64,000 bases of DNA from an uncultured virus (IMG/VR IMGVR_UViG_3300021400_000104) (taxonomy: Duplodnaviria > Heunggongvirae > Uroviricota > Caudoviricetes), in IMG/VR virus record IMGVR_UViG_3300021400_000104; one strand, written 5' to 3'. Both the position numbers and the translations under genes were made by a program. Within the stretch, counting starts at the first letter, position 1. Every line of letters begins with the position of its first letter. Positions 36,760-63,312 of this stretch are shown here, piece after piece. A model generated the notes under the pieces. That model had not been told where the DNA came from. It made no database searches and worked only from the letters and a program-made list of their open reading frames with translations.

Positions 36760-36824
36760 GGCGGGCGCCCTACGTTTAGTGCTTTAAAGTGCTAAACTTT
36801 AAAGCATTAAAATTCGCCTATCCC

Positions 36825-42467: not shown

Positions 42468-42619
42468 TCGCCCTTTTTTCTTATTAAGAATATGTTCGCT
42501 TTAGCGCTTTAAAGCGCTAAAGCCCCTACCTTATCCCTGCCCTACCTTCCAGCGCTTTAAAGTGCTAAAGTTTAAAGTGCTAAAGTATAAGGAGAAAGGC
42601 CGATAAATCGGCCTTCCTC

Positions 42620-43261: not shown

Positions 43262-43711
43262 ATGACCATCAAGACTTATGTTGACTTCCTGACCGCTGTC
43301 GCTGCTACTGCTACCGACCCCGAGATCAAGGCCTATGCGGAGGCCGCGATCACTAAGCACGATACCTCCGCCGACTCCCGCCGTGTAAAGGCCGCTGACA
43401 AGGCATGGACTGCCGCGGCCGACCTCCTCGGTTCGATCTCTTCGATGGTAGACCATGCCGAGCCGCTGACCTCTGCGACTGCTGCCGCTGCCGTTGGTAT
43501 CTCGACCCAGAAGGCCTCCGCTGTTCTGAAGGCAGGCGTCGCACATGGCGTTCTTGTTGAGGTGGATCCCGTCAAGGGTAAGTCCGGCAAGGTAAAGGCC
43601 TTCCGTTTCGCCACTGACCTCGCAGAGGATCCGACCGAGGACCCGGTAGAGGATCCGACCGAGGACCCGGTAGAGGATCCGACCGAGGATTCCGCTCCCG
43701 CTGAGGATTAA
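43262..43711 (+). CDS. Putative winged-helix DNA-binding protein with acidic DPTE/DPVE repeat tail
   Basis: Paralog of 34975; 12-bp tandem repeats 43625-43690; terminator. Confidence 0.65.
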   Translation: MTIKTYVDFLTAVAATATDPEIKAYAEAAITKHDTSADSRRVKAADKAWTAAADLLGSISSMVDHAEPLTSATAAAAVGISTQKASAVLKAGVAHGVLVEVDPVKGKSGKVKAFRFATDLAEDPTEDPVEDPTEDPVEDPTEDSAPAED

Positions 43712-44553
43712 GAAAAGACCGCCCTTCGGGGCGGTTTTTTTTCGTTCCTAAAAAAGAACATATGTTCCGCTTCAACGCTTTAAAGCGCCAAAGCCCCTAC
43801 CTCTTACCCCTACCTTCCACCGCTTTAAAGCGATAAAGCGAAGTCTCTATCAATTCAATACTTTAAAGTGTGAAACGTCGGGGCACCCAGTATCCCTATA
43901 GGTTTACTAGGTTAGCAGATTGCACAAAAACCGTATATCGCTCTTGAAAAACTTTGTGCAAATTGCCTATTGACAAATTCCAAAAAATATGGTATAATAG
44001 TATTAGAAAGAGACCGGAAGGCAGAGAGTAGAGGGGGAGATCTAACCTATAGTTAGCATAGGCTAACCATTGAGAAATGGCTATTTTGCGTTACCAATTT
44101 TTAGCAATTAATTAAATCTTTTAACTTAAAAATTTTAATACTTTAAAGCGCTAAAACCTAGTATTTCTATAGGTTTAATAGGTTTAATGGGCGAATGTAT
44201 GTTCACCCAGTATTCTTATAGGCTTAGTAGGTGAATGGGCGTCTGCCTCGGCGTGCCCGCCCTACCCTACCGCTGCACCATCCCCAACAAACCGGCCGGT
44301 GAGCTGCATCCGTGAGCTGCGATTCGTCTGTGAGCTGCATCTGTGAGCTGTAATCCAAGCGAGCTGCACCCTCCCATGAGCTGCGCCGGCACTATAGAAA
44401 AATGGGGTATATATAATATATCCGCGAGCTACAACTACCGGCTGTGCAAGACAAGTCCTCCCTACCTTCATCGCTTTAAAGTGCTAAAGTATAAAAATAA
44501 AAGCCAACCGCCTATTCGGCGAATTGGCTTAATCTGTTCTCAAAAGGGCGCCA

Positions 44554-44847
44554 TCAATCTTCATCATCTGAATAAGCGCGCCTAAAGCGCTCAGTCTTGT
44601 CTATCAGGTAATCCGCAAAGTTAAGAATCTGTTCCGCATCATCAACATAGATGCGCCCTGCGAGTATCGAGAACATCAACTTAAAGGCACGGCCTGCAGT
44701 CTTGACCTGCTTTTCATCTGGAGGAAGGGGACGCTTCTCTTCCTCCTCCGCAAAGAGATTGTAAAGGAATCCTGCGGTATCTCGAACCTCATCGGACTCC
44801 GGGTTGTCCAGAATAGCACGGAAAAGTTCAGAATTCAAATCCATCAT
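44554..44847 (-). CDS. Hypothetical protein (97 aa)
   Basis: GAGGAGG RBS. Confidence 0.6.
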   Translation of the reverse strand: MMDLNSELFRAILDNPESDEVRDTAGFLYNLFAEEEEKRPLPPDEKQVKTAGRAFKLMFSILAGRIYVDDAEQILNFADYLIDKTERFRRAYSDDED

Positions 44848-45668
44848 CCTGATCGTCCTCCTCTATTGCAGTAGGCTTTACTTTACTTTTAATCTTAATA
44901 ATTAAGAAAGCATCACATTGGTATTTTCTCCCTTCCTTGTTCTTCCTTTACCTCTTATAGTTTAATTCTTAATAATTACTAAAGTACCACATCGGAATCA
45001 TCCCCTTAACTATTTTATATTCATTATCTCTCATTTACTATATATATTATATCATATTTTTAGAAAAAAGTCAATTAACTGGTTGTAAATAAAATATAAA
45101 TGCTTAGTGACTAGAATATAAGTGCCGCGGCACGCTAATATTTAGCATTGTTATGGGGCGCAATACCTAGTATTTCTATAGGTTTAATAGGTTTTCGCTC
45201 CCAGAACATATCAACTAGTCCTGCCGCAATCTTCCTTTTGTCCAAACGAAGCAAGATTGTAGGGCGTTGTCAATCAATTGACTCGATACGTTTCCTCTTG
45301 AGCTGTGAGCTGCGTTTGATACTTTAGAAAAAAACGCCGAAAAATAAAAGTCAATTGATTGGCTCGGCCGCGTTTTATTATACTGTTACCATATCTCCTG
45401 ATACTTTAGAAAAAAACGGTCTTTTCTTGTTGCCTTGTTTGAACAGGAGCTCCGTATAAATGTGTCAAAATCCCGTACCGAAAAATTTTTCACGGAGGAT
45501 TATTTTAAACCCCAATTTACGATACCATCCTGTAAGCAAATTCAAAGCAAATTCGCCTATGAAAAATTCACCGGCGCTCTATAAAAATTTTTCCAATTCC
45601 ATACCCCTATTTTACCACTCTATAATAAGTAAGGGGGCTATCTTTTTTGATAGCCCCCTATATAATCT

Positions 45669-48409: not shown

Positions 48410-49033
48410 TTAAATCACATATTTCCATATGAACCCGTATGCTGTTTTTCGTTTTCCCTAACAAACATGATTTATATGAGAAGCCCCGCCATCTTTACCA
48501 ATAGCTTTTGCCGCCTCTCGTAAAGAGGAATAAGTAGCAAGGTACTCTCCATTTAACGAATACTGATTTACCATTTTTCCCCTTGTTTGTCGGAAATATT
48601 CTTGTGAACTTCTTACTTTTATATCGTTATTTTTTAATAATTCCGATAAATACCCTTCATTACATTCGCAAATTTCTGCAGTCTTCTTAATAGAATTAGT
48701 TCTTTTATAAGTCTCAAATAAAACACTATAATTAAGATATTTTCTTCCGTCTCCACCAATTGTCGCATTATAACCATTTGTAAAAGAATCAAAAAATTCA
48801 ATCCAATATCTTTCTCGCTCTTCGGGATTGTCTGTCTATTCAATTTCTTCTATAAAGAAATTTTCAATTCCATATTTCTACATTGCCAAATAAAGAGGGC
48901 GCTTTTCAAATTTATCATCATATGACTATGCATTCCGGCAATGCTCTTGGAAACGAATTTTTACATTTCTTTCCGTTTTTCCTATGTAAATTTTCCCATT
49001 TATTTTGTTAGTAATTTTATAAATGTATGCCAA
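48410..49033 (-). CDS. GIY-YIG homing endonuclease with NUMOD1-like domain (TAG read-through)
   Basis: YIYKITNKINGKIYIGKT..AM(Q)KYG..C(Q)GKRKTAYGFIWKY. Confidence 0.85.
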
Positions 49034-49109
49034 AACTAATCAACTCCATTTTATAAGTATTTTGTATTCCATAATTCTTACTACATAAAGATATAGCCAT
49101 TTAAGAATA

Positions 49110-49183
49110 TCACGCCAACGGGAGTCGAACCCGTATCTCAAAGATGAAAGCCTTGTATCCTCAACCGATTAGACGATGGCGCG
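49110..49183 (-). tRNA. tRNA-Glu(TTC)
   Basis: Cloverleaf, loop CT-TTC-AT. Confidence 0.85.
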
Positions 49184-49398
49184 ATTTATATACATTTGAT
49201 AAATTAGATAAGCCAATTGGCTTTTAAGAACACTCATCTTTTTAGTTTCTGTCTAAGAGTGGTTAGTTCTGTTCCAGAAGATAAAGTCATTTTAGACCTT
49301 ATCCTAAAAAGTGTCACCAACCGTTCCAATATCTCACCGCGCTCAGGCGTCTATTGATACTGTTTGAGCATTCTTAAAAGCCAATTGGCTTTTAGAGA

Positions 49399-49788
49399 TT
49401 AATCCTGGTCGGCCTTTGCCTTCTCGCGTTCTGCCTCATCACGAGCCTTATTCTTTTCAGATACTGCCTTCCGTGCTGCCTTGTTAGCCGCTGCCCTCTC
49501 ACGATCTGCCTTATACTTCTGCCCCGCGGCCTCACGATCAAAAGCTCTTACGAGGCCACTCTTAGGAGTCTGTCGGTCAAACGCGTCCTTTGCGGTTACG
49601 CCGAACTCAACGCAAACCTCCTTACCGTCCTTCTCACCAAGGGCTACTGCGAAGTCGCCAGAACCGGTCTGAGTTACATTAGCTTCACCGAAACGCTCCT
49701 TAAGCCAAGCCTCAAGCTCAACGATAGAAGCACCGCGTGCGGTATTCTTAACAGACTTATTCTCTACATCAGCAAAATTCATAAACAT
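49399..49788 (-). CDS. Hypothetical protein (129 aa), paralog family
   Basis: Promoter, leader hairpin, RBS. Confidence 0.7.
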   Translation of the reverse strand: MFMNFADVENKSVKNTARGASIVELEAWLKERFGEANVTQTGSGDFAVALGEKDGKEVCVEFGVTAKDAFDRQTPKSGLVRAFDREAAGQKYKADRERAAANKAARKAVSEKNKARDEAEREKAKADQD

Positions 49789-49925
49789 ATATTTTTCTCC
49801 ATTTCTCCCACTCTGTGGGTTGTGCGGGAGTTTTTTTATTTGCTCCCTTTTCTTTATCTTACATATTTATTATAACATTTTTTTTGGAAAAAGTCAAATA
49901 TTTATTTGTTTTCTTTTTCCCGAAC

Positions 49926-50000
49926 TGGCGCCCCGTAGAGGAGTTGAACCTCTATCCCTCGGTTCGTAGCCGAGCGTCCTATCCGTTGAACGAACTGGGC
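49926..50000 (-). tRNA. tRNA-Arg(ACG)
   Basis: Cloverleaf with CCA. Confidence 0.9.
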
Positions 50001-50172
50001 ATTTATACTGTTTGGTGATGAACCTTAACCCAATCTCTGCTGGGTCGTCAACAGCTTGACGAGCTTACCGCAGTTTAACGCGCACTTGTGGCTTAGCCGT
50101 GACGGCGGGTCGTTTCGTAGACCACCGATAGCACTTTTGAGAATCACTCGGGGCGCATCACTATTCCCCAAT

Positions 50173-50347
50173 TACTCATGGAGGGACTCGAACCCTCATT
50201 CCTCAATCCCCTTGACGCAACGCCAATGTGCCCTGCGGAATCGAACCGCCCTCTAAGCCCCTTGCTTAGTGTACCCTCTTGTACTACGGTGGGAATCGAA
50301 CCCACAAATCAAGTTTGTTGATGTCCTGCCGATTGGATGACATGAGT
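50173..50347 (-). ncRNA. tRNA-like RNA with three T-arms
   Basis: ACTCATG/CATGAGT acceptor, D-arm, three GGTTCGA stem-loops. Confidence 0.55.
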
Positions 50348-50467
50348 GATGCCACTTGAGGTATGCGCACTTCCTCTTCCATTCGATGCTGTAGCCGCGT
50401 CGTTGTTCGCCCTTTTTGTTCAAGGAGAAGGCTCCCGCCCATATTGCATGGGACAATCAAACTCCTC

Positions 50468-50543
50468 TGGTGCGGCTGGCGAGACTCGAACTCGCGACCC
50501 ACGGTTTAAAAGACCGTTGCTCTGCCAGCTAAGCTACAACCGC
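50468..50543 (-). tRNA. tRNA-Lys(TTT)
   Basis: Cloverleaf with CCA. Confidence 0.9.
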
Positions 50544-50650
50544 ATTTATTATACACTTTATGTGGATACCCGCGCTCGCATCGGGAACTTGAAGTCGGCA
50601 ACAGCCTTAGCTTTTGTGATACTATTTTCACCATACCCACAAAATGGTGT

Positions 50651-50725
50651 TGGCGCCCTGTAGAGGAATTGAACCTCTTTCCTTCGGTTCGTAACCGAGC
50701 GTCCTGTCCGTTGAACGAACTGGGC
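50651..50725 (-). tRNA. tRNA-Arg(ACG)
   Basis: Cloverleaf with CCA; near copy of 49926. Confidence 0.9.
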
Positions 50726-50800
50726 GTTTATATGATAATCTCAATATTTTTTATCCATTTAAGGAATCAAGGCAAAACAGATTATCAGAGAAGCCCGTAG

Positions 50801-50876
50801 TGGTGAGCGTGACAGGGGTCGAACCTGCAACCTCGAAATTAAGAGTTTCTTGCGCTACCAATTGCGCCACACGCCC
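50801..50876 (-). tRNA. tRNA-Lys(CTT)
   Basis: Cloverleaf with CCA. Confidence 0.9.
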
Positions 50877-51144
50877 ATATTGCTGTTTGACTGACTTGTG
50901 TCTCATACCTAACAGCTTAGGTAACAGTTTCCGTCCAGCGAAACTGCGTGCTGCTTTGACTTTTCGTACCAAAGTACCGCTACTCTTTTGCCAGTCAAGC
51001 GAGGCGTAGGACGTTCCTCATAATTATGGGTTTTTTATGCAAGGTTTTCCCACCCTTGGGAGCTGTTACTCTCCTGCCCAGTCCGTCTATTTTTCCTCGC
51101 GCGGGCTCGCGATGAAGCAGTTTATACTCAGGTGCTTAGGAGCC

Positions 51145-51220
51145 TGGTGCTCGTGACAGGAATCGAACCTGCAACCCACGGATTAAGAGTCCGCTGCGCT
51201 ACCAATTACGCCACACGAGC
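51145..51220 (-). tRNA. tRNA-Lys(CTT)
   Basis: Cloverleaf with CCA. Confidence 0.9.
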
Positions 51221-51424
51221 ATTATTTTTTCACAAGCCGCAACCTCTAACGAGTCCAGCAACCGACTATTGGCTTGTTATCTTGGCGAGAGATGCTGCGC
51301 TCATCGTATGAACATCTCGCTGCATTACGCCGTTTAGGCCTTACGACCATGCGGCAGTTGTCGGTTTTTAACGAGGTTTTCCTTACGCCCTCGATTTATA
51401 TATTGCCAATCGGCAGGAGTGGAC

Positions 51425-51592
51425 TTAGAGAAGAACTACTACCAAGGTATCGCCATCAGTATCTACCTCAACGTTTGCGGAAGTATCGCCCTCCCAAGAA
51501 TACCACTCATCAGAAGCATCATAGGAGATACCAAGCGGACGGTCCGCAACTCCAAGGGACTCAGCCAACTCGAACAGCTCACGGATAGTCAT
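51425..51592 (-). CDS. Small acidic protein (55 aa)
   Basis: Promoter, RBS, MTIRELFELAESLG. Confidence 0.55.
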   Translation of the reverse strand: MTIRELFELAESLGVADRPLGISYDASDEWYSWEGDTSANVEVDTDGDTLVVVLL

Positions 51593-51679
51593 TTTTCAAA
51601 ACCCCTTTCCTTAACTCTCTATAAATATTATATCATATTTTTAGAGAAAAGTCAAATAATTTTTTGCTTATGTTTTTAA

Positions 51680-51788
51680 TGGTGGAGCATACCGGAGTCG
51701 AACCGGCTTATCTCGTCGATTTAACGAGAAGTTCAAATCAGCTTTCGCCTACCCACACGATATGTTACCGACCGTGCTGCCATGCCCC
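51680..51788 (-). ncRNA. Small tmRNA-TLD-like RNA (Ala-type acceptor, no anticodon arm)
   Basis: GGGGCAT/ATGCTCC-ACCA with G3-U70, canonical T-arm. Confidence 0.55.
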
Positions 51789-51793
51789 ATTAT

Positions 51794-51910
51794 TCCTCTT
51801 GGTGGGAATTGAACCCACAACCCTCGGTGGCTATCAGCTACAACCGTAGCCTATCCATTCCTCAATCCCCCACAACTGGAGGCGCTCTACCTAATTGCCG
51901 CTACAAGAGG
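51794..51910 (-). ncRNA. tRNA-like RNA with enlarged anticodon domain
   Basis: CCTCTTG/CAAGAGG acceptor, T-arm, about 50 nt inside the anticodon stem. Confidence 0.55.
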
Positions 51911-52051
51911 CGAGGAGATTTATTTCAGACGCTCTTTAACGCCGCCATTACTCAAATGGTTAATTCACTTGAGGTATGTACACTTCCTCTTAATGGCGCT
52001 GGAATCTCGCCATTGCTACGCATAAATCCTTTGGAGGAGCCTCCAATTAAC

Positions 52052-52279
52052 TTAGTTATAAATCAGATACTCATACTCAGTACCATCTGTCAAAGATAAA
52101 TCATGAATTATAACCCTTATTCCCCAATCCTCATTCGTAATGCTATTCCAAAGCGTGTCACCGTACTTCTCCCAGAGAGAATTGATTGCCTCAGAAGGAG
52201 TCATATTGAAAATCACTTCTGAAACAAGACCGAAGCCCTGATTAAACTCCCTATAAGCATAAGTTCTTTTCAATACCAT
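52052..52279 (-). CDS. Hypothetical protein (75 aa)
   Basis: Promoter, RBS. Confidence 0.6.
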   Translation of the reverse strand: MVLKRTYAYREFNQGFGLVSEVIFNMTPSEAINSLWEKYGDTLWNSITNEDWGIRVIIHDLSLTDGTEYEYLIYN

Positions 52280-52347
52280 AAATATTTCTCCTTTTGAGCT
52301 TTTCTCTTTATCTTACATATTTATTATAACATAATTTTTAAGAAAAG

Positions 52348-52593
52348 TCAAATAAACCTTTGATAAATATCTACCTCAAACTCGCCAAGTCCAACGCCCA
52401 AATGATTGCTCCCTCTACGAGCACCTTCATATAGCTCCTCAATACAGTAATCGAGATCTTCCTGAATATAACCCCAATACTCTCTATGCTCTTTTAATGC
52501 GTCAATTGCAAAATCAATAGCTTCGTTTAGAGACTTAAACACTTCCGGCTCGCTATCCTGAATTGACGAAATAAAAATCCAAATTGCTGTCAT
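52348..52593 (-). CDS. Hypothetical protein (81 aa)
   Basis: RBS AAGGAGG. Confidence 0.6.
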   Translation of the reverse strand: MTAIWIFISSIQDSEPEVFKSLNEAIDFAIDALKEHREYWGYIQEDLDYCIEELYEGARRGSNHLGVGLGEFEVDIYQRFI

Positions 52594-52615
52594 AATACTT
52601 CCTCCTTGATTAAAC

Positions 52616-52882
52616 TTAGTGATCAGTGCCATAGCCCTGAAGAACTACAGTACCGTCATCAGTTGCGAATTCAATTAGACAGTCAGGTTGCCAACCAACA
52701 TAATGAAGATGAACAGGCGCGCCAAATCTAGTTACTTCATAGATGTCATAAACCTCATCCACATAGTCCTGCATGTCAATGTAATGGATAAGCTCATCTG
52801 CGGTCATCAGAGTCGCATCATGAATTTCATCCTCAGTTCCCTGATCAAGAATGCGCTGAACAAGAAACATACGCTCGAACAT
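52616..52882 (-). CDS. Hypothetical acidic protein (88 aa)
   Basis: Promoter, RBS. Confidence 0.65.
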   Translation of the reverse strand: MFERMFLVQRILDQGTEDEIHDATLMTADELIHYIDMQDYVDEVYDIYEVTRFGAPVHLHYVGWQPDCLIEFATDDGTVVLQGYGTDH

Positions 52883-52970
52883 AAGTGTCCTCCTTTATAG
52901 GGCTTTTTCCCTCATCTTCTATAATAATTATATCATATTTTTCGGAAAAAGTCAAATATCTTTTAGATTT

Positions 52971-53336
52971 TTATTCTCCAAAAGAAAGCGCCGCAATCTC
53001 AACTTCGGAATGGTCTTCTCCCCAATGAACCCACTCATTGAATTCATCTTCATCAAGAATATACCAGTGAACTATACTATGAGTGTCAAAATCCTTAATC
53101 AAGTTTGATAATGCATCAGGAGTCATTTCATTAAAATCAAACGCCTTATAGACTTCCTTCCATACTTTTTCTCTGGTCAAAGATTTCCAGAAAGTAAAGT
53201 CACTATGAATTGCCATCTTCAAGTCTTCATGCTCCCCATAATCAATTTGAAGAACTTTGTATCGACAAACCTCCGGCGCCGCGCCCTTTTCATTCGTAAA
53301 CCATTCATAGCCATAGATTACATAAGCTCTTGCCAT
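52971..53336 (-). CDS. Hypothetical protein (121 aa)
   Basis: RBS. Confidence 0.6.
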   Translation of the reverse strand: MARAYVIYGYEWFTNEKGAAPEVCRYKVLQIDYGEHEDLKMAIHSDFTFWKSLTREKVWKEVYKAFDFNEMTPDALSNLIKDFDTHSIVHWYILDEDEFNEWVHWGEDHSEVEIAALSFGE

Positions 53337-53348
53337 CAGTGCTCCTCC

Positions 53349-53546
53349 TTACCGCTCACGGCGATACATCTCGATTATATCTTGCTGAACATAGAAACCA
53401 GACGCATGTTGACGCTCTTCAAGCTCTTCAACAAATCGCTCATGAGCTTCAGCGATAGACTGCTTATAACGAGCCAGCTCATACTCATCAATGACTTCAT
53501 CATCTTCATACTGTTCAAGAAATTCAAGCATCTGTTCCTTAGTCAT
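53349..53546 (-). CDS. Hypothetical protein (65 aa)
   Basis: RBS. Confidence 0.6.
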   Translation of the reverse strand: MTKEQMLEFLEQYEDDEVIDEYELARYKQSIAEAHERFVEELEERQHASGFYVQQDIIEMYRRER

Positions 53547-53559
53547 AGCCCGTCCTCCC

Positions 53560-53805
53560 TTAATTGTCCTGATAGCTCTTAATTCTGAAGATTTTATCTC
53601 CGATACTTTCTTGCTTAGCTATGCTACAAATCACCACCCAAGCGTTATCTTTTTCGATACACTTAACAAGAGTGACTTTTTCGCTTATTTGCCCATTTGT
53701 AGTGACAGCATAGAGCTGCTTTTCTATGCAGTCATAATCAATAAACAGAATGTGTTCTGTGTCAACTCTCGTACAGGTATCTCTGGACAGAATAATCATA
53801 TGCAA
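53560..53805 (-). CDS. Hypothetical protein (~80 aa)
   Basis: Promoter, RBS. Confidence 0.5.
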   Translation of the reverse strand: MHMIILSRDTCTRVDTEHILFIDYDCIEKQLYAVTTNGQISEKVTLVKCIEKDNAWVVICSIAKQESIGDKIFRIKSYQDN

Positions 53806-54195
53806 TTCTCCTTTAAGTCTCTTTTCCTTAAATCTCTATAACAATTATACCATAAATTTATAAAAAAGTCAATTCTACTTTTCTGGCATACCGCTTGTTA
53901 CCCAACATTGAGTAAAAACAGATGTCCATTGCGGAGTATCCAAGTAAATCTACACCCACTCTCGAGCCGCATCTTCTGAATCACATACTCTCAAAAGAGT
54001 CTAAGTAGCATCTTCCGTGACTCCATACAAAAGCCATACATTCATTACTCTACCTCTGGCTCATACTTCTCTTCAATCCAAACGGTAGTATATTCTCGAC
54101 TATTTTCGAGTGTCGTTCTCATAAGCTCTGCCGCGGCCCGATTAAAATAAGTTGAATGGAGATGAAAACTCCCCATCTCCTTACAAGTCCAAATT

Positions 54196-54591
54196 TCATA
54201 GATAGTAACCATAAATATCTCCCTTCAATTCAATTTGTGTCCAATTAACTCCGCAGTCTTCTGCAATAGTTTCAAAATCCTCTTCCATCATTACTCGATA
54301 CATCTCTTCATTATCTTTATCATCAAGACTCAGGATAAACTCTTTATCATTAATCTGGTAAGGAGAGTACCGATAAAAATCCCGCTTTTGCTTACCAGAA
54401 GGATAAAACTTCTTAATCAGGAATTCCTTTGCACAAGAATAGCAAAGGTCTCTTCCTTCGCACTCGACTCCATCAAGATCGTTTGTCAAATCACTTCCAC
54501 AATTGTCACAGTAAACATGCTCTACATGCTTTCGTCCACAATCAATACAAGGAAGATCACAACTTACACAATCATTCTCAAATCTTCTCAT
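54196..54591 (-). CDS. Cys-rich Zn-binding hypothetical protein
   Basis: Multiple CxxC motifs. Confidence 0.6.
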   Translation of the reverse strand: MRRFENDCVSCDLPCIDCGRKHVEHVYCDNCGSDLTNDLDGVECEGRDLCYSCAKEFLIKKFYPSGKQKRDFYRYSPYQINDKEFILSLDDKDNEEMYRVMMEEDFETIAEDCGVNWTQIELKGDIYGYYL

Positions 54592-54605
54592 TAAAAAGCA
54601 CTCCT

Positions 54606-54833
54606 TTAAGTAAAAATAACTGCTCTTGCTGTTACATAACAAACATCATCTACCATAAAACTCTCTCTGTTTTTAGCAAAGCTATCAGCAAGACAAGATA
54701 AAAAATAATCCCTATCTTGCTGGTCATAATTTTCACAAATATATGCAAGACATAAGTTATAGGCATCATCACTATTAATACAATAAGAAGGCAAACTCTC
54801 CTTATCCTTAAAACGGACTTCCCAACTTAGCAT
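54606..54833 (-). CDS. Hypothetical protein (75 aa)
   Basis: Promoter, RBS. Confidence 0.55.
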   Translation of the reverse strand: MLSWEVRFKDKESLPSYCINSDDAYNLCLAYICENYDQQDRDYFLSCLADSFAKNRESFMVDDVCYVTARAVIFT

Positions 54834-54911
54834 TTCTTTTATCTCCTTTTTAATTACTATATATAGTATATCATAAAATATGAATAAAGTCAATTATATA
54901 TATTATGATGT

Positions 54912-55685
54912 TTATACGAGATTGCTAGTAGAAGAGCAATATCCACTATAATCAATGATTTTTAATTTTCCATCAGGGAAAAATGCAATATTGCCTGCAT
55001 GAAGATCATTAATATCATAGAGTTTCAAGAAGGTGCCAAGTTTAAGAAGATCAGAATAGGAATAATGATTTGCCCACCAACTAATAACTCTATCGGGGAT
55101 AGAATTGTAAAAGCAACAAGTTTTACGAATATCATTAATTTCAGTCTTACTTAAAGGAGCATCATCTCTTCCATTATATTCATCAAATGCCATCAAATAG
55201 CGCTCTTGCACATAGACGTGAGTTCCAGGGATTCTTACCGTTTCAGCAAAAAAATCAGCTACGCCATAAGAGAGAGCCTTCTGATAAACTTTCGCTTCAA
55301 CATCGCAATAGTTTCCAGTGCTACCCATAAAGAAAGGAATCTTAGAGAACCATCCCTCTTCATCCCTATCGCACTCTTTTTTCTCACTGTCAGACAGTTC
55401 ATTATAATCCTCTTCTGTATAATAATTTACCATATAAGTATACGGAGACTTAAAGGCAAAATTCTTTAAACAAAGAACTACTTTAGTTGCTCCTGCATTC
55501 CAATCCAAATCAAGATATGCTCCCGCATTTTCATACTTTTCTACTAACAAGTCAATATCAAGTTCATTGTATACTTCAGAACAAAAGCGATCGTAAATAA
55601 GTTCGGTCTCATTGAAGGCATTGATAAAGTCATTAATCCATTTCTGTTCTGCGCGAACATAATTTAACATCTCAAGTACCTTCAT
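54912..55685 (-). CDS. Protein-kinase-like fold enzyme (257 aa)
   Basis: GATKVV Gly-loop, FAFK, catalytic loop DLHAGN, KIIDYSG. Confidence 0.7.
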   Translation of the reverse strand: MKVLEMLNYVRAEQKWINDFINAFNETELIYDRFCSEVYNELDIDLLVEKYENAGAYLDLDWNAGATKVVLCLKNFAFKSPYTYMVNYYTEEDYNELSDSEKKECDRDEEGWFSKIPFFMGSTGNYCDVEAKVYQKALSYGVADFFAETVRIPGTHVYVQERYLMAFDEYNGRDDAPLSKTEINDIRKTCCFYNSIPDRVISWWANHYSYSDLLKLGTFLKLYDINDLHAGNIAFFPDGKLKIIDYSGYCSSTSNLV

Positions 55686-55840
55686 AGTAATTCTCCTTTT
55701 CTCTTTTACTATATATATTATATCATATTTTTAAAAAAAAGTCAAATAAAATTCTGTTTAAAACTATTTGTGCCGGCGCATCAAAGTATTAATGGCCGGC
55801 ACAATATCTATAAGGAGAACACTATGAAAAAAGAATACGT

Positions 55841-55915
55841 TGGCAGGTCACTGAGAACTCGAATCCCAACGAACAGCTTTGGAGGCTGTCATGCTACCAA
55901 TTACATTAGTGACCC
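55841..55915 (-). tRNA. tRNA-Trp(CCA)
   Basis: Cloverleaf with CCA. Confidence 0.85.
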
Positions 55916-55922
55916 ATTAAAC

Positions 55923-56043
55923 AAGACAGACTCTAAACGCGTGATGTCATTTCACCAGCCCGCGATAAATGGCCGCGGGCGAAGGAATCAAACCTCCAAT
56001 TCGTGCTCCCTATGCAAAAGAAGTGAATTGCTGATCTGTCTTT
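55923..56043 (-). ncRNA. Circularly permuted tRNA-like element
   Basis: T-arm+GCCCGCG-GCCA precedes CGCGGGC+D-arm; flanked by AAGACAGA/TCTGTCTT. Confidence 0.5.
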
Positions 56044-56045
56044 AA

Positions 56046-56121
56046 TGGTAGGAGATGTGGGACTCGAACCCACGACCTCAATCTTGTAAGGATTGCCTTC
56101 TCGCCGCTGAAATAATCTCCC
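56046..56121 (-). tRNA. tRNA-Val(TAC)
   Basis: Cloverleaf with CCA. Confidence 0.9.
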
Positions 56122-56262
56122 ATATCGAGGTACTCGCTATCGTTGGGTTGCTTTGACCTCATTACCCCATCCTTATTTATATACCGCCTACTGAAGAAAA
56201 ATGCTTACGCAGGTAATTCTTCTCTCCGTCGAGACCGCCAACTGGGGAAACAAGCGGTTAAG

Positions 56263-56338
56263 TGGACAATATGGGAATCGAACCCATCTGATTTCCTCTT
56301 TGCAAGAGAGGCGAGCACCCCATGCACTCCCATCGCCC
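56263..56338 (-). tRNA. tRNA-Ala(TGC)
   Basis: Cloverleaf, G3-U70. Confidence 0.85.
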
Positions 56339-56481
56339 ATTTAATCGGTTTTACTTTGCTTCTTTATTTTTTTACGAGGCGTTCTCCACTAAAGCCACAT
56401 ACCAGATGGCGCTAGTGAACTTAATCACTAACCTTTCTGTCGGTGGTAGTTTAAACCGAAAATCCATGTTAACCCCTCAAG

Positions 56482-56556
56482 TGGTAGGAGCGAGTGGAAT
56501 CGAACCACCGTTACACGAGTATCAGTCGTGCGCACTGACCATTGTACTACGCTCCT
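56482..56556 (-). tRNA. tRNA-Ile(GAT)
   Basis: Cloverleaf with CCA. Confidence 0.9.
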
Positions 56557-56780
56557 ATATAACCCCGTAACTAGACGCCATGTCGACCTAACGTCAGTTT
56601 CTATCCCATACGGTATCCAGATGGGCTTTTGTTTCGCAGTTTTGTTCAGCGAAGGATTTTTACATATTGAAAATTCATAAAAAGTCACCGCTTACTATTG
56701 AAACAGTAAGTCATCTCTGTCTCGCAGTAGAGTGCGCTAATTAACAGTTTTACAGGACCCTAATTAGTAAGGAAACCTAC

Positions 56781-56857
56781 TGGCGACTCCAACCGGGTTC
56801 GAACCGGCGACCCCGTGCGTGACAGGCACGTGCTCTAGCCAACTGAGCTATGGAGCC
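56781..56857 (-). tRNA. tRNA-Asp(GTC)
   Basis: Cloverleaf with CCA. Confidence 0.9.
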
Positions 56858-56905
56858 ATTTTAGCGGTTTTCCACGAATAGAAGGGTCATCCGCCTTACC
56901 CTAAG

Positions 56906-56980
56906 TACCCCATATGGGAGTTGAACCCATGATCCTCGGATTAAGAATCCGATGCTTTCGACCATCTAAGCTAATGGGGC
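56906..56980 (-). tRNA. tRNA-Lys(CTT) by anticodon
   Basis: Cloverleaf, loop TT-CTT-AA. Confidence 0.8.
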
Positions 56981-57189
56981 ATTTTTGAGCATTCTGTAAT
57001 CAAACCGTACGCATTTCAATCACTATGCTCTGCTGTGTCTTCTTCCACAGTGCCAAGTCGCCATACTTTTTACGGACGATACGCTGTAGTCGCCTCAACC
57101 TTCCCTAACGACGAAGGGAACCGCCTCTCTGTTCTCGTGAGAAGTACCCCGATGGTCTGTTGATTTACGTCCCTAACCACAAGGACAAG

Positions 57190-57735
57190 CTGCCTCTGCC
57201 GGACTCGAACCGGCGACCTTGAAGTTGCTTACACATCAGCTCAAACTTCTTTTATCACCTCTTGTAATAAGAAGTCTTTTGCCCAAGTTATTCCTCGAGT
57301 TTGACCATTCTGCGCAGGTAAAATTCTGAACTTCTTATTATGTCCCTAACAAAACTGTACAGGGATAAGATAAGATTTTCCGTCAAAAACCGTAGCAAAA
57401 TAATCAATATCATCTTCAGAATAAGTGTGATGAATAATCTTACCATCTTTCCGATTACAACTTGTTGTTGAAATTCTAAAAGACGCACCATTATCATCAG
57501 ATGTTGCTGTTTTACTTTGTACCCTAATGAACTTCCCATCTTTATCTACTACAAAATCATAACGCTCACAATCCCCATATGGAGTAAGAACATTATAACC
57601 AAGTCTTAAAAACTCAAGGATAAGTTCAACTTCTGTTATATTTCCTTTTTGTTTTGAATTTAACTCTTTCATTAACATTAAAGTTTGAGGTCAAGTAAAC
57701 AGCTTCCTGCTACTACCGAACTGAGCTAAGAGGCA
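57190..57735 (-). tRNA. tRNA-Asn(GTT) interrupted by ~471 nt insert (57227-57697)
   Basis: 5' half TGCCTCT..GAAGCTGTT and 3' half AACTTCAAGGTC..AGAGGCAG rebuild a cloverleaf. Confidence 0.8.
57241..57678 (-). CDS. PD-(D/E)XK endonuclease (I-Ssp6803I/PDDEXK_5-like) inside tRNA-Asn; TAG read-through
   Basis: KGNITE..GYNVLTPYGDCERYDFVV..RVQSKT..IDYFA; frame continues past TAG to NGQTRGITWAKDF. Confidence 0.8.
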
Positions 57736-57741
57736 ATATAT

Positions 57742-57817
57742 TGGCTGGAGAGATGGGAGTCGAACCCACACCCTTCTGATTAACAGTCAGCTACTCTACC
57801 GCATGAGCTTCTCTCCA
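57742..57817 (-). tRNA. tRNA-Asn(GTT)
   Basis: Cloverleaf with CCA. Confidence 0.9.
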
Positions 57818-57824
57818 ATTTGTA

Positions 57825-57898
57825 TTGCGGGAGCCGGATTTGAACCGACGACCTTCAGGAAATGACCCTGACGAGCTTCCAGACTGCTCTATCCCGCT
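57825..57898 (-). tRNA. Initiator-like tRNA-fMet(CAT)
   Basis: 1:72 mismatch, fMet-type body, loop GT-CAT-TT. Confidence 0.8.
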
Positions 57899-57972
57899 AT
57901 TTTTAATTTTTCTTCTCTCTCAACTTCTATATATATTATATCATAAATTTCAAGAAAAGTCAAATAATTTAT

Positions 57973-58048
57973 TGGTTGCGATTATAGGATTCGAACCTAT
58001 GCGTTATCGAGTCAGAGCCGATTGCCTTTACCACTTGGCTAAACCGCA
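57973..58048 (-). tRNA. tRNA-Gln(CTG)
   Basis: Cloverleaf with CCA. Confidence 0.9.
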
Positions 58049-58290
58049 ATATATTTCCAACTCACTTGATGACGTCAAGTCAAGCAAGCTAACGACAAGG
58101 AAGGTGCCGACCTCAGAGTTGACAGAGGCATATCATAGCTAACGGTTCACGAAAGTAACTACTCTAACGGAAAATTGTGACATCTTTAATTTATTCTCAC
58201 GGAGTGAGGGACAATTCTCAAAAGCAATCTCTCCGATATATCCATGCATAGTATAGTCCAGCATGGCTAAGGACTTTAGCTTTTAATGCC

Positions 58291-58367
58291 TGGTGACGAC
58301 ACGGAGACTCGAACTCCGATTCTCCTCCTTGAGAGGGAGGCGTGTTATCCAGTTCCACTATGCCGCC
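58291..58367 (-). tRNA. tRNA-Glu(CTC)
   Basis: Cloverleaf with CCA. Confidence 0.9.
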
Positions 58368-58400
58368 ATTCTTTGGGGAGTCTTAATACTCCCCTAAGAT

Positions 58401-58877
58401 TTACTCAGTCTCGGTCTCGGTCTCGGTCTCGGTCTCAACAAGGGAATAACCCTTAACCTTAGACTTAGAACCCTCCGGCTTTACATCAGTTACCATTACA
58501 GTACCCTCAGCAATCGGAGATTTCATCAGAGCTGCAACCTTCTGCGAAGTAGTTACATCCTCAAAACCAAAGGCGCAAATGTCCTTTGCGGTATAAACTA
58601 CTCCAGGTGTCATCATCTGAAGAATCTGAACCTGACGTGCCTCATTTGCAAGCTGCTTAGCAGTAGGCTTAGAAGTAGCCTTGCGCTTAAAGTTCTTCTC
58701 GTCAATCTTGGTAATCTGTGCCTGAGCATACTCAACCATCTCGGGGATCAGCGCGCCGGTCTCATCAAAAATCGGCTTAGATACCTTAGCCGTCTCACCG
58801 GTCTCAGACTTGGTATTAATTACCAGAGTACCCGTAGTGAGTGCAGTCATAAAGCTCTTCATAGTAATAGCAGTCAT
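58401..58877 (-). CDS. Putative winged-helix DNA-binding protein with (ET)n tail
   Basis: Paralog of 34975/43262 (PTAKQ..SQKVAALM..KVKGY). Confidence 0.65.
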   Translation of the reverse strand: MTAITMKSFMTALTTGTLVINTKSETGETAKVSKPIFDETGALIPEMVEYAQAQITKIDEKNFKRKATSKPTAKQLANEARQVQILQMMTPGVVYTAKDICAFGFEDVTTSQKVAALMKSPIAEGTVMVTDVKPEGSKSKVKGYSLVETETETETETE

Positions 58878-58996
58878 AGTTTTCTCCTTTTCTCCGGATT
58901 TTATCCGGTGTGGACTTTTCTTCTCGTTTACTATATTAATTATAGCATAATTTTTAAGAAAAATCAAATTATTTATTGGTTCCTTCCATTTGGAAG

Positions 58997-59527
58997 TGGT
59001 AGGAGGGGTGGGAGTTGAACCCACTCACCCAGAGGGAACGGTTTTTGGAGATAAATCTTAGATTTGAACTAAGTACTTATGTGTTTGAAAACCTTGATTA
59101 TTCGCAGTTGGTTCAGTTCTTAAAGAAACTTGATTTTTAGTTCCAAAACTACGAATATCAGACATTGGAATTACAAACAGGTTTAATTCATTATCAGCAC
59201 AAAACAAGATGTCTAAAGGATGCTCAAGAATGTTATCATAAGTTGTTCCTTTTGTGCCGCCTGTAGAACGGAAGCTAATTACTTTGTCTTTACTTGATGT
59301 AAACTTACATTGAACGGTTTGGAATATTCCGTCTTTCTCTATGATTAAATCATACCATTGAGTATCATTTAATGGAAGAGAAACTGTATATCCATTAGTT
59401 CCAAAATAAGCTATTGCAAGACTTAAACCCGCTTTTCCTCTGTCTTTATTTGTTTCTAACTACATTCGTATCCTCCCTTAGGAATTTACCACAGACCGCC
59501 GCGACTCGCCATCTTCGCCGCCCTCCC
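58997..59527 (-). tRNA. tRNA-Tyr(GTA) interrupted by ~445 nt insert (59046-59490)
   Basis: 5' half GGGAGGG..GCGGTCTGT and 3' half AAAACCGT..long variable arm..CCCTCCTACCA. Confidence 0.8.
59058..59465 (-). CDS. PD-(D/E)XK endonuclease (PDDEXK_5-like) inside tRNA-Tyr; codon 2 is TAG
   Basis: AAGGGAGG RBS; M(Q)LETNKDRGKAG..GYTVSLPLNDTQWYDLII..TVQCKFT. Confidence 0.8.
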
Positions 59528-59678
59528 ATTATTTGAGAAGTACCGCCCGCTTCTCCACCGCATGACATCCCTTAGCCGCCATGCTCCTACGGTTTCCTTA
59601 CAAACCGCCAAAGATTTTTCTAATCTTGTGTGAAGTAGTTACGAAAGGCGGGGTGTCACACGCATTGCCCTCTTTCTT

Positions 59679-59754
59679 TGGTGGGAAGAGAAGGAGTCGA
59701 ACCTTCGTTCTCGCGTTTTCAGCGCGGCGCGCCAACCGTGTACGCCATCTTCCC
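59679..59754 (-). tRNA. tRNA-Phe(GAA)
   Basis: Cloverleaf with CCA. Confidence 0.85.
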
Positions 59755-60377
59755 ATTTTAATACTGGTTTATTTTTTTGTTTACGCTTATCCAGTTGCGT
59801 ATCAAGGGATTCTACCTCCATCCGTCTTTATAAAGACGTCTGCAATCGGCTCTCCATCACGTCTAAAGCCGCAAGACTGGTTTTAGTGACTTTTCCTTGT
59901 CCCTTACTTTCTATAAAATTATATCATATTTTTTAAGAAAAGTCAAATCTTTGTTTGTCTCTTCTTTCCTTATGCTTATCAGGAATAATCTTAGTCATCG
60001 GGGGAACTTCCCACATAATTCGCTTTTGCTTATCAAACTCTCGCTGAGCCTTCTTAGACATCTTCTCATAAGGAACGAACTTCTGTTTCATTTTCTTTCC
60101 CCCTTTTCTATTATTATTATATCATAGTTTTTAAGAAAAGTCAAATAATTTTCTGTTTCTGTCTGGACAATATAGGCGCCTATATTGCCCGTTTAACGTT
60201 GCAGAACCAACGGATTTTTTAACTAAAGTTTTCTCTTCGGCGCATTCACCTCAGCACATATCGGGCAGAGTTCCCGTACTCTCTGCGAGTTAACATCACT
60301 TCGTAGATGTTCAACGCCAGTTCACTTAGAACTAGAAAGGCATTCTCGTTCTTCAGAACTCGAGAAGAAACTGGTAC

Positions 60378-60453
60378 TGGTGCCGATGACAGGGGTCGAA
60401 CCTGCAACCTCGAAATTAAGAGTTTCTTGCGCTACCAATTGCGCCACATCGGC
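60378..60453 (-). tRNA. tRNA-Lys(CTT)
   Basis: Cloverleaf with CCA; core identical to 50801 copy. Confidence 0.9.
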
Positions 60454-60596
60454 ATTTCGGTATTGAGGTCACGTGCCCTCTATCGGTCGTACCGTTCCGA
60501 CCGCCCCTTTCTCGTTGACGGAGATAAGACGAGTAACTCCGCTGCTTATTTCCAAGCAGTAAACTGTTGAGCTATTATATTCCCGCCCAATGGGTC

Positions 60597-60672
60597 TGGT
60601 GCCAGTAACCGGGGTCGAACCGATGACCTGCCGCGTATGAAGCGGATGCTCTACCAACTGAGCTATACTGGC
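60597..60672 (-). tRNA. tRNA-Met(CAT) (or Ile2)
   Basis: Cloverleaf with CCA. Confidence 0.85.
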
Positions 60673-60785
60673 ATTTAATGTGAACACCCTGCCACGATTC
60701 ACATACGAGCTATTCGACAGGCTCTAAACCCATCAAGCTCTCCCTCCATTTTTTACTCCTTCAAAAGGTGAATGGCTAAGACCTT

Positions 60786-60860
60786 TGGTACTCACGAGTG
60801 GGATTGAACCACTGACCTTTTCCACGTCAAGGAACTGCTCTCCCGCTGAGCTACTCGAGC
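60786..60860 (-). tRNA. tRNA-Val(GAC)
   Basis: Cloverleaf with CCA. Confidence 0.85.
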
Positions 60861-60999
60861 ATATTGAAACAGTTAATAGCAAGTCAAAAGAAACATCTTG
60901 TGTTTCGATTGTGCGTTTTAGACGCTGCTTCGCCGCCTGCCATCTATATCGGTAGTTAGCTTAACGCCGAGGTTATCGTACTCGGAATCTACGGTTAAC

Positions 61000-61074
61000 T
61001 GGTACCCATACTCCGAATTGAACGGAGATCACAACCTTAGAAGGGTCGTGTTCTATCCATTGAACCATATGGGC
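61000..61074 (-). tRNA. tRNA-Arg(TCT)
   Basis: Cloverleaf with CCA. Confidence 0.9.
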
Positions 61075-61098
61075 ATTTGGAGGACGCACCGCGCCTCA

Positions 61099-61851
61099 TT
61101 AAATTTGAGACCATTCAAGGTCAGACATTTTCTTTATGTCTGTTGTCCGTCTTGGTAAATTATAAAAATCACACCACTTACGAACTGCATTATCTGTCAC
61201 CCCATAATCTCTACCTATCGCAGAAAAATTAGAAGTTCTTAGTTTAATTTTTAATTCTTCTCTGGATGGACGTTTTGTTTCTCTCACTCTATCTCGAAGT
61301 CTTCGTGCTGCTTCACAAGATTTACAACGACAAGCCCCAAATGAAATTTCTCTCCCACAATCAACACAATAGTAAATCTTTCTTGATGTGTCGATAATTG
61401 GATAAGAAATACCAATCTACGGACGAGTTTCTCCTAAGTTAAGTAAACTTACTTCTCGTTGTGAAATATGAAACTTCTCTGCAATTTCTTGCTATGTCGC
61501 ACCGCCCCTCAATAAATCATAGATTTGAAGAACCTCCTAATCAGAAATCTTGAAATTTATCTCCGCCGGCGCATCCCCGCCAGCAGTAAGATTATATCCA
61601 AAATCTGAATTATTAGACTGATAAACTTCTATCCAATATCGCTCCAAGTTATTAAGGTCTGTCTTATCACACTCTACTAAAATTTCAAACGTGAAAGCAT
61701 CAAGACCATACTTCCTCATTGCTTTATATAGGTATCCATCTTCTGTCTAATATCTACTTCTATGCTCTTTCCATCTGCGAGAAATATTGACAGATTGCCC
61801 AATATACTTTTTCCCATTTATTGTATTTGTAATGACATAAATTCCAGTCAT
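61099..61851 (-). CDS. GIY-YIG homing endonuclease (~250 aa, TAG read-through)
   Basis: MTGIYVITNTINGKKYIGQS..RRWKEH..AMRKYG..GYNLTAGG; fragments 61537-61719 and 61099-61287 in frame. Confidence 0.85.
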
Positions 61852-61919
61852 TCTTCATCACCTCATAATATAAGTAACAAAGAAAGTTGAACTCTCAAAC
61901 TTTTTGAGTTCGAGATTTA

Positions 61920-61991
61920 AGCTCCCAATCCGACTCGAACGGATGACCACTGATTACAAGTCAGTAGTTTTACCAACTAAACTATAGGAGC
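61920..61991 (-). tRNA. tRNA-Thr(TGT)
   Basis: Cloverleaf. Confidence 0.9.
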
Positions 61992-61997
61992 ATTTAG

Positions 61998-62070
61998 CAC
62001 CCCTGACAGGAATCGAACCCGTATCTTGACGTCCGTAGCGTCACGTCCTAATCCGTTGAACGACAGGGGC
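61998..62070 (-). tRNA. tRNA-Arg(ACG)
   Basis: Cloverleaf. Confidence 0.9.
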
Positions 62071-62965: not shown

Positions 62966-63312
62966 TGGTGGAGGCGGAGGTGATCTGCCCACCTCGTCCA
63001 AGCATCCGCCACTTTATTTTCTACGAGTATAGTTAATCAGCTTTCTCTTTCTTCTCGTGCCGCCGACCAACAAATTACACGATATGTCATATTGCAAAAA
63101 CAAGCAAATCAACTGCAATAATCTTTTGATTGCCGGCACAACAAAATATTAAAGAGTCAAATCCGTGTGCAAGATGTGAACTCAAATCAAGTGCAGCTCA
63201 CGCTGCGAGTGCATAATTGTAATTAGCGTTTATTTTTAACTACGTTTTTAAGTTACGTTAAACTACCCGCTTATAAAGTTTAAGGACACCTGTCGAATCT
63301 AAATACGCCCCC
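62966..63312 (-). ncRNA. ssrA: tmRNA
   Basis: GGGGGCG..ATTCGAC 5' end, CGCCTCCACCA 3' end with G3-U70, tag ORF (A)ANYNYALAA-TGA after ATAAAC. Confidence 0.9.

Follow-up and report, generated by a model that had tools for sequence, protein, structure and literature searches.

An insert with tRNA-like ends in the anticodon loop of the tRNA-Tyr gene of a TAG-recoded phage

INTRODUCTION

In bacteria and phages, tRNA introns are regarded as group I introns that splice themselves and whose hallmarks are a ribozyme core (P3-P8) and a terminal G, and enzyme-dependent tRNA splicing is held to be archaeal or eukaryal; a bulge-helix-bulge intron has two 3-nucleotide (nt) bulges with a 4-bp helix between them and the splice sites within. 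Here we describe an insert in the tRNA-Tyr gene of an uncultured phage of the class Caudoviricetes (IMG/VR record IMGVR_UViG_3300021400_000104), analyzed over a stretch of 64,000 nt that is called the window below. Like the Synechocystis tRNA-fMet group I intron that encodes I-Ssp6803I (PF11645, structure 2OST), the insert sits in a tRNA anticodon loop and carries a predicted endonuclease of that family, but unlike that intron, it has no group I ribozyme, is almost all open reading frame (ORF), and has tRNA-mimicking ends.

The structure of the insert as a tRNA-shaped scaffold is firmly supported by comparison with its relatives. As to its function, we regard the matter as about evenly balanced between other explanations and the following one: the insert is a mobile tRNA intron without a ribozyme, the ends of its RNA stand in for the acceptor/T-arm half of a tRNA, and it is excised and its exons re-joined. 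With slightly less confidence, we suggest that it could represent a third kind of tRNA intron in phage arrays, a "tRNA within a tRNA" that would be excised by RNase P and RNase Z and re-joined by an Rnl-type ligase. The scaffold appears to be new, since no description of a phage tRNA intron that lacks a ribozyme and has ends resembling a tRNA was found in the full-text literature outside subscription journals.

RESULTS

The split tRNA-Tyr gene

The insert separates U35 from A36 of a tRNA-Tyr gene that lies, like the genes around it, on the minus strand (Table 1). When 59491 is joined in silico to 59045, ARAGORN finds an 86-nt type-II tRNA-Tyr(GUA) with a long variable arm; in the junction search, 1575 pairs were tried and 21 gave a tRNA. 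Sliding the junction by one base places a His anticodon on this long-variable-arm body, and since uninterrupted relatives of the same body read CTGTAAA, the split gene is Tyr and not His. Neither the intron mode of ARAGORN (0-700 nt) nor the Rfam tRNA model detected it. About 40 of the insert's 445 nt lie outside the ORF.

A sequence-only reading of the window had noted that the ends of the insert are complementary, that a ribosome-binding-site-like motif precedes ATG-TAG and 133 further sense codons in an ORF invisible to standard calling, and that no other Tyr tRNA is present. All of this agrees with the sequence and its translation: under table 11, just a 49-amino-acid (aa) TTG fragment (59058..59207) is listed, and none of the 23 other tRNAs called by ARAGORN is Tyr. 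What that reading missed is the identity of the paired ends as an acceptor/T-arm mimic of tRNA.

The ends of the insert imitate a tRNA acceptor/T-arm half

The layout of the insert corresponds to tRNA positions 49-76 plus 1-7, with a T-arm mimic directly 5' of the acceptor 3' strand and, directly 3' of that strand, one base and CCA followed by the exon. It thus shows the parts of a tRNA-like processing element, namely, a 7-bp acceptor helix, a 5-bp stem, a 7-nt T-loop-like loop, and a discriminator/CCA. We collected relatives from IMG/VR (43 loci) and from metagenomes (the best 80 of 154 confirmed), among which an anticodon-stem filter found 28 loci (18 distinct) with the gene inside the anticodon loop; the pair counts cover these 18 and stand apart from L053, recognized later, and from nine loci with decayed exons (L031-33, L035-38, L042, and L043). 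The acceptor mimic is paired in 115/126 cells with compensatory changes at 7/7 positions, the T-stem mimic is paired in 86/90 cells with covariation at 3/5 positions, and the T-loop mimic reads TTCRAWT in every distinct locus except one with TGCAATT. Slid strands gave 31 to 68 paired cells as controls, and for acceptor and T-stem alike, none of 5000 partner shuffles matched the observed pairing. The T-arm mimic overlaps the last codons of the ORF, but it is found at 20/20 distinct intron-type ORF ends versus 2/66 free-standing ones, where it belongs to a real tRNA remnant; it is therefore not a by-product of a conserved C-terminal peptide.

The junctions follow one rule in three classes. Class 1 (CTGT / insert...N-CCA / AAA) comprises the window, L001, L002, L022, L101, and L029, class 2a (CTG / ...N-CCA / TAAA) comprises L028, L021, L080, and L099, and class 2b (CTG / ...N / TAAA) comprises eight sequences. 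In all three, the 5' junction lies directly 5' of the first acceptor pair and the 3' junction directly after the tail, be it N-CCA or N; G occupies position +1 in 16/18 distinct loci, and position -1 is occupied by U (6 loci) or G (12 loci). Both exon junctions thus fall exactly where RNase P and an RNase Z-type 3' end-maker would be expected to cut. In classes 2a and 2b, the ORF lacks a stop of its own and terminates at the UAA of the exon, so that the excised intron would be a non-stop mRNA, its only stop being in the 3' exon. Beside this stands the observation that the window encodes a tmRNA (62966-63312, minus strand; Rfam RF00023, 103.7 bits).

The tail tracks the host tRNA. It is N-CCA in all 10 loci (class 1/2a) whose tRNA-Tyr encodes CCA and N alone in all 8 loci (class 2b) whose tRNA-Tyr does not, which suggests that the scaffold adjusts its 3' tail to the CCA-encoding habit of its host. 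This habit differs among genomes: CCA is encoded in 17/23 window tRNAs (the other 6 lack it), in 78/88 tRNAs of G001-G005 (7/8, 13/15, 28/29, 22/23, and 8/13, respectively), and in just 2/27 tRNAs of G012, which carries a class 2b insert. Classes 2a and 2b form one well-supported clade in the protein tree, so the 18/18 agreement reflects few independent changes; it nonetheless points to the tRNA enzymes of the cell rather than to self-chemistry, and it is as expected if a tRNA 3'-end-making enzyme forms the 3' end of the insert. This mirrors the behavior of RNase Z of some organisms (archaeal), which cuts CCA-less precursors after the discriminator and CCA-containing ones after the CCA and needs the acceptor stem only (PMC7479834).

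The insert fits neither a group I nor a bulge-helix-bulge intron. No group I or other known ribozyme was matched in Rfam across 56900-59760, either at gathering scores or at E<=10. A group I intron was rejected given no RF00028 match, a terminal A, the small non-coding part, and an ORF-less relative of 53 nt. A bulge-helix-bulge intron was rejected as well, because CTGT (4 unpaired) stands opposite TCCAAAA (7) and the 5' junction abuts a 7-bp helix.

The same ends surround other cargo in other tRNAs

A relaxed structural scan of all collected sequence gave 168 candidates, mostly chance; we retained only those with all 7 acceptor pairs formed, a well-formed anticodon loop, and a product that ARAGORN accepts as a tRNA after splicing in silico. 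Together with a tRNA-Tyr of L085, six hosts of inserts other than PF11645 ORFs emerged (Table 1). All six encode CCA, have an N-CCA tail, and obey the same junction rule, and when spliced in silico, five of the six are called as tRNAs by ARAGORN, L085 failing that threshold. The L085 insert consists of an acceptor mimic (GATATGT/ACATATC), a small hairpin, a T-arm mimic, G-CCA, and little else. The insert of G005 is itself tRNA-like, with acceptor, T-arm, and G-CCA, and the Rfam tRNA model spans the outer tRNA with the insert looped out (46.6 bits). A degenerate-pattern scan for ORF-less class 1 introns matched at least 118 stretches; the matches listed were mostly ordinary tRNAs, and among them, a two-helix test left no true case.

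The scaffold is therefore portable, occurring in Tyr, Asn, Glu, Gly, and Ile tRNAs with PD-(D/E)XK, HNH, GIY-YIG, or no cargo, and its origin may lie in complete tRNAs that came to sit inside anticodon loops, an arrangement seen in G005. Given its presence in tRNA-Glu(UUC), tRNA-Gly(UCC), and tRNA-Ile(UAU), the suggestion of the sequence-only reading that the insert may shield a GUN-anticodon precursor from anticodon nucleases is not supported.

Table 1. Coordinates of the split tRNA genes of the window and of inserts with the same ends in other tRNA genes
Sequence	Feature	Position	Strand	Details
Window	tRNA-Tyr 5' exon	59527-59491	-	G1 to U35; end ...GCGGT CTGT
Window	Insert (candidate intron), 445 nt	59490-59046	-	Anticodon loop, between U35 and A36
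Window	Acceptor-stem mimic, 5' strand	59490-59484	-	GGTAAAT; its first base is the insert's first base
Window	Shine-Dalgarno-like AAGGGAGGA	59479-59471	-	5 nt ahead of ATG
Window	Predicted endonuclease ORF, 135 aa	59465-59058	-	ATG, TAG, 133 sense codons, TAA
Window	ORF codon ATG	59465-59463	-	
Window	ORF codon TAG	59462-59460	-	Read as Gln
Window	ORF codon TAA	59060-59058	-	
Window	T-arm mimic	59073-59057	-	Overlaps the ORF's last codons (L V Q I stop)
Window	T-arm mimic, stem	59073-59069	-	CTTAG
Window	T-arm mimic, loop	59068-59062	-	TTCAAAT
Window	T-arm mimic, stem	59061-59057	-	CTAAG
Window	Acceptor-stem mimic, 3' strand	59056-59050	-	ATTTATC; pairs with GGTAAAT
Window	Discriminator-like T	59049	-	
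Window	CCA	59048-59046	-	With the preceding T, the insert's final bases
Window	tRNA-Tyr 3' exon	59045-58997	-	A36, long variable arm, T-arm, CCCTCCT, A73, encoded CCA
Window	Second split tRNA	57735-57190	-	
Window	Second split tRNA, 5' exon	57735-57699	-	
Window	Second insert, 471 nt	57698-57228	-	
Window	Second insert's PF11645 ORF	57678-57241	-	TAG at codon 111; 32% identical to the first
Window	Second split tRNA, 3' exon	57227-57190	-	
L085	Insert in tRNA-Tyr, 53 nt	757-809		No ORF; adjoins a free-standing family endonuclease directly upstream
G002	Insert in tRNA-Asn, 669 nt	5747-6415	-	HNH
L018	Insert in tRNA-Asn, 735 nt	124-858		HNH-like, by homology of translation to the G002 cargo
G001	Insert in tRNA-Glu(UUC), 861 nt	130210-131070		GIY-YIG
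L017	Insert in tRNA-Gly(UCC), 158 nt	2503-2660		No ORF
G005	tRNA-Ile(UAU)-like gene with a 73-nt insert	L161 17015-17159	-	No ORF; insert after position 36

The endonuclease of the insert

The ORF product matches Pfam PF11645 (PDDEXK_5) over residues 6-124 at 55.3 bits (E 9.5e-15; cut-off 26.1) and 2OST weakly (E 0.0056). D39, E43, Q52, and K54, putative counterparts of the 2OST active site (catalytic D...(E/Q)-x-K core), are invariant in nine intron-type sequences. Judged by these matches, it is a predicted PD-(D/E)XK endonuclease of the I-Ssp6803I family and, like I-Ssp6803I, presumably homes into the uninterrupted tRNA gene. A 99%-identical copy of the ORF lies on a metagenome contig (L050, 134,765 nt). 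Altogether, 118 family ORFs were found in or beside tRNA-Tyr genes or within tRNA arrays; most of the collected relatives encode a free-standing enzyme directly beside an intact tRNA-Tyr, and the protein tree shows repeated switches between the free-standing and the intron state, at least five being forced by well-supported branches. In L055 and L056 (at about 710-760), a free-standing family endonuclease stands between an intact tRNA-Tyr upstream and a tRNA-Tyr 3' fragment (variable arm, T-arm, acceptor strand, and CCA) downstream, which looks like a trace of gene replacement in homing.

A TAG-recoded phage

The phage of the window is TAG-recoded (code-15-like), with TAG read as sense. The longest ORF grows from 275 aa under table 11 to 926 aa with TAG as sense, and positions 1-27000 then form a compact run of long ORFs, one of which encodes a tail tape-measure-like protein (PF10145). 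In-frame TAG is present in 22/22 structural ORFs, where it makes up 187/358 (52%) Gln-type codons, and it terminates 0/36 complete ORFs. In the 15 ORFs of the tRNA region, it makes up 18/71 Gln-type codons; 8 of these ORFs are without any TAG, TAG occurring in 4/4 endonuclease ORFs, and 8/11 others being TAG-free. ARAGORN found no tRNA with a CUA anticodon among the window's 23 tRNAs (49109-62070), and 5/7 relatives' genomes have one (G001, G002, G003, G005, and G011). G002 has, in addition to its tRNA(CUA), a tRNA with the anticodon UUA, which reads TAA (12177-12251, minus strand; ARAGORN).

Codon 2 of the ORF, which the sequence-only reading had proposed to compare in homologs, is CAA in L002, L052, and L054 and TAG in L001, L028, L053, L078/79, and L095. 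With CAA standing there in relatives, this TAG encodes Gln, and further Gln positions across the PF11645 family carry TAG as well.

The window has other features of note. Its tRNA set is unusually redundant, with four tRNA-Lys(CUU) and three tRNA-Arg(ACG) at 49926-62070 (ARAGORN). Free-standing GIY-YIG endonuclease ORFs with four in-frame TAGs each lie between tRNA genes at 48410-49033 and 61099-61851 (both minus strand), and the C-terminal domain of the latter is similar to that of the G001 and G002 intron cargoes. With TAG as sense, positions 27000-45500 hold short overlapping ORFs only, on both strands (longest 242 aa), and there, the G+C content is raised (0.35-0.49) and the GC skew changes; this stretch may consist of small early plus-strand genes or be non-coding.

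A second split tRNA built otherwise

A second tRNA of the window, which reads Asp(GUC) or, with the junction slid by 1 nt, Asn(GUU), is also interrupted by a PF11645 ORF (Table 1), so both interrupted tRNAs do have GUN anticodons, as the sequence-only reading stated. The ends of this insert are built otherwise: a single base separates a terminal helix of 4 bp (TTAC/GTAA) from the exon, an internal loop (TTGAC/CTGATGT) and a 9-bp helix are situated farther inside, and there is no T-loop or CCA; its host tRNA also lacks an encoded CCA. Enterococcus phage EFP01, a cultured phage (KY549443; L130 1243-1620), carries an insert of this build in a tRNA-Asp that is not annotated; the helices covary, and its counterpart protein is 50% identical to the second endonuclease, for which no relatives were confirmed in viral contigs. 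The resemblance of the ends UGAC/CUGAUG to a kink-turn or hammerhead was weighed by eye alone and is not claimed. Just downstream, the spacer 57005-57199 is covered by contigs from all three RNA runs described below; Rfam gives nothing for it at E<=10, and its predicted folding is no stronger than that of shuffled sequences (z -0.68).

DISCUSSION

If the insert is an intron, its removal could proceed as follows. RNase P would cut the precursor of the phage tRNA array at U35/G+1, leaving a 3'-OH on the 5' exon, and an RNase Z-type 3' end-maker would cut after CCA, so that the 3' exon begins with a 5'-phosphate. Both halves of the tRNA-Tyr, kept together by acceptor, D, and T pairings, would then be sealed by an ATP-dependent RNA ligase (Rnl family, from phage or host), which would restore the GUA anticodon; 3'-OH and 5'-phosphate ends from such cuts are substrates of Rnl-type ligases. 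The excised RNA would serve as mRNA for the I-Ssp6803I-family homing endonuclease (PD-(D/E)XK), and this enzyme would carry the element into uninterrupted tRNA-Tyr genes. Both the cuts, for which the junction geometry and the tail rule speak, and the sealing by a 3'-OH/5'-P RNA ligase are inferred. In full ORFs, Rnl-family RNA ligases (Rnl1- or Rnl2-like) score above the Pfam cut-off in 7/9 tested intron-bearing relatives (G001-G005, G012, and G013), while RtcB was found in 0/5 of G001-G005 and was not matched in G021, which has a tRNA-Asn intron. We do not rely on the association of ligase and intron (5/5 intron-bearing genomes, G001-G005, versus 1/5 free-standing controls; extended, 8/10 versus 3/10), because the genomes are interrelated and one control, G009, was found to bear a mimic-bounded tRNA-Gly intron, so that the control set is not intron-free.

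Several observations weigh against this splicing route. The remaining 2/9 relatives, G009 and G011, have neither an Rnl nor an RtcB match, and in the window, no ligase was matched by Pfam among 38 ORFs or by tblastn with the relatives' ligases; the joining step may therefore depend on a host enzyme. CCA is a strong inhibitor of Bacillus subtilis RNase Z (PMC7479834), and if exonucleases trimmed the 3' end instead, the 3' exon would be lost. In the energy-minimum fold of the precursor, the 3' acceptor strand pairs locally instead, albeit in a hairpin that is not conserved in L002, L029, or L028. Finally, contigs from three RNA runs (two studies), compared with one DNA run, cover 59223-59468 (the ORF region, in three RNA libraries) and 57005-57713 and contain no splice joints, but such contigs cannot display RNA ends and say nothing on splicing either way. 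tRNAs are poorly captured by such RNA libraries.

The lack of ligase matches would suit an explanation in which the mimic serves the element only, by cutting out or stabilizing its mRNA, and the halves are never re-joined; the phage tRNA-Tyr would then be dead and the tRNA-Tyr of the host used instead. We consider this explanation rather unlikely, though it is the most serious of the alternatives. In its favor, G012 retains an intact second tRNA-Tyr, relatives with decayed exons exist (the nine loci named above), and the frequent state switches in the protein tree mean that intact exons might simply be young. Nevertheless, each of the 18 distinct loci with a mimic has intact exons, and the decayed cases examined (L033 and L035 type) have no mimic. 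The anticodon stems of the split genes are paired in 90/90 cells with covariation at 5/5 positions, and splicing in silico yields a tRNA-Tyr call in 12/18 loci with default ARAGORN and in 17/18 with a relaxed threshold. The ORF-less inserts of 53 nt and 158 nt could not release any mRNA, yet the mimic and its precise placement at the junctions are retained in both. Moreover, the interrupted gene is the sole tRNA-Tyr in 6/7 relatives' genomes with large tRNA sets; G004, for example, has 23 tRNAs for 19 amino acids and misses Tyr alone. Two other alternatives, each of which we judge very improbable, concern the cutting activity. Self-splicing by an unrecognized small ribozyme of the insert ends, perhaps together with the tRNA body, is conceivable in that new ribozyme classes are still turning up and the conserved ends could belong to one; however, Rfam is silent even at the relaxed threshold, the tRNA-like acceptor and T-arm account fully for the conserved non-coding parts, and the tail tracks the CCA status of the host tRNA without exception. 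The PD-(D/E)XK protein might itself be a splicing endonuclease or maturase by analogy with archaeal EndA, its superfamily including tRNA-intron endonucleases (PMC3424549); against this, the same ends surround HNH, GIY-YIG, or no ORF, the 4 nt opposite 7 nt between anticodon stem and terminal helix make no bulge-helix-bulge, and most family members are free-standing beside an intact tRNA-Tyr.

An alternative of another kind makes the TAG at codon 2 a purpose-built switch and the main point of the locus, which we find unlikely, somewhat more so than a mimic that serves the element only. The sequence-only reading held that the nuclease can be made only with amber read-through, as an on/off switch tying homing to late infection. 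The former is true, since TAG is a sense codon, but almost trivial, as the same applies to every structural gene: with codon 2 being a Gln codon of a TAG-recoded phage, the enzyme would be made only when the phage's amber-reading tRNA is present. The latter is a known idea, in print for another clade of recoded phages, the TGA-recoded Agate phages, in which in-frame recoded stops are proposed to delay an intron homing endonuclease until late infection (bioRxiv 10.1101/2021.08.26.457843), and specific support for it here is weak. Among 88 distinct family ORFs, 7 have TAG and 2 have CAA as their second codon; within TAG-using ORFs, a Gln-type codon 2 is TAG in 7/7, versus 48/190 (25%) at other Gln positions, and all four endonuclease ORFs of the tRNA region contain TAG. 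This excess is carried by only about four independent lineages and thus gives a small hint that an early TAG may be preferred in endonuclease ORFs. On the other side, TAG is common in this phage, as its share of structural-gene codons shows, and in L001, a tRNA(CUA) directly follows the same tRNA-Tyr in the array, so that mRNA and suppressor may be made together.

If the insert is spliced as proposed, phages have enzyme-dependent tRNA splicing built from universal tRNA end-processing enzymes and a ligase, phage RNA ligases gain a routine job, and cases of an endonuclease within a tRNA but without an intron core, overlooked by annotation pipelines, find an explanation. Phage tRNA sets such as that of G004, which misses Tyr alone, would then look incomplete because split genes like this tRNA-Tyr escape ARAGORN and the Rfam model. 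The scaffold would also amount to an excision signal that is programmable and, at about 30 nt, compact.

tRNA-like cutting signals in longer RNAs are known from the mascRNA end of MALAT1 and from mitochondrial "tRNA punctuation." In plant mitochondrial t-elements, likewise, embedded acceptor/T-arm-like structures are the cutting signals of RNase P and RNase Z (PMC1920247). These signals mark mRNA ends and not introns, whereas here the mimic bounds an insert inside the anticodon loop of another tRNA, and both cuts must therefore be followed by exon joining. The genetic code has parallels in stop-codon-recoded gut phages, in which TAG is likewise sense and densest in structural genes; the delayed endonuclease described in the same source differs from the tRNA insert in residing in a group I intron of a protein gene of TGA-recoded phages (bioRxiv 10.1101/2021.08.26.457843). 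The insert resembles bulge-helix-bulge introns, which are processed by EndA plus RtcB or Trl1, in being ribozyme-less, protein-dependent on the proposed route, and located in or near the anticodon loop, and some archaeal tRNA introns likewise travel with homing endonucleases. It differs from them in its expected ends, which would be 3'-OH/5'-P rather than 2',3'-cyclic phosphate/5'-OH, and RtcB is absent from all five relatives searched (G001-G005). Phage T4 Rnl1 and PNK repair breaks in the anticodon loop, where a break is a host defence. As in T4, a phage RNA ligase would seal a broken anticodon loop, Rnl1- or Rnl2-like genes being present in most of the relatives tested, but unlike in T4, the break here would be a routine step of maturation.

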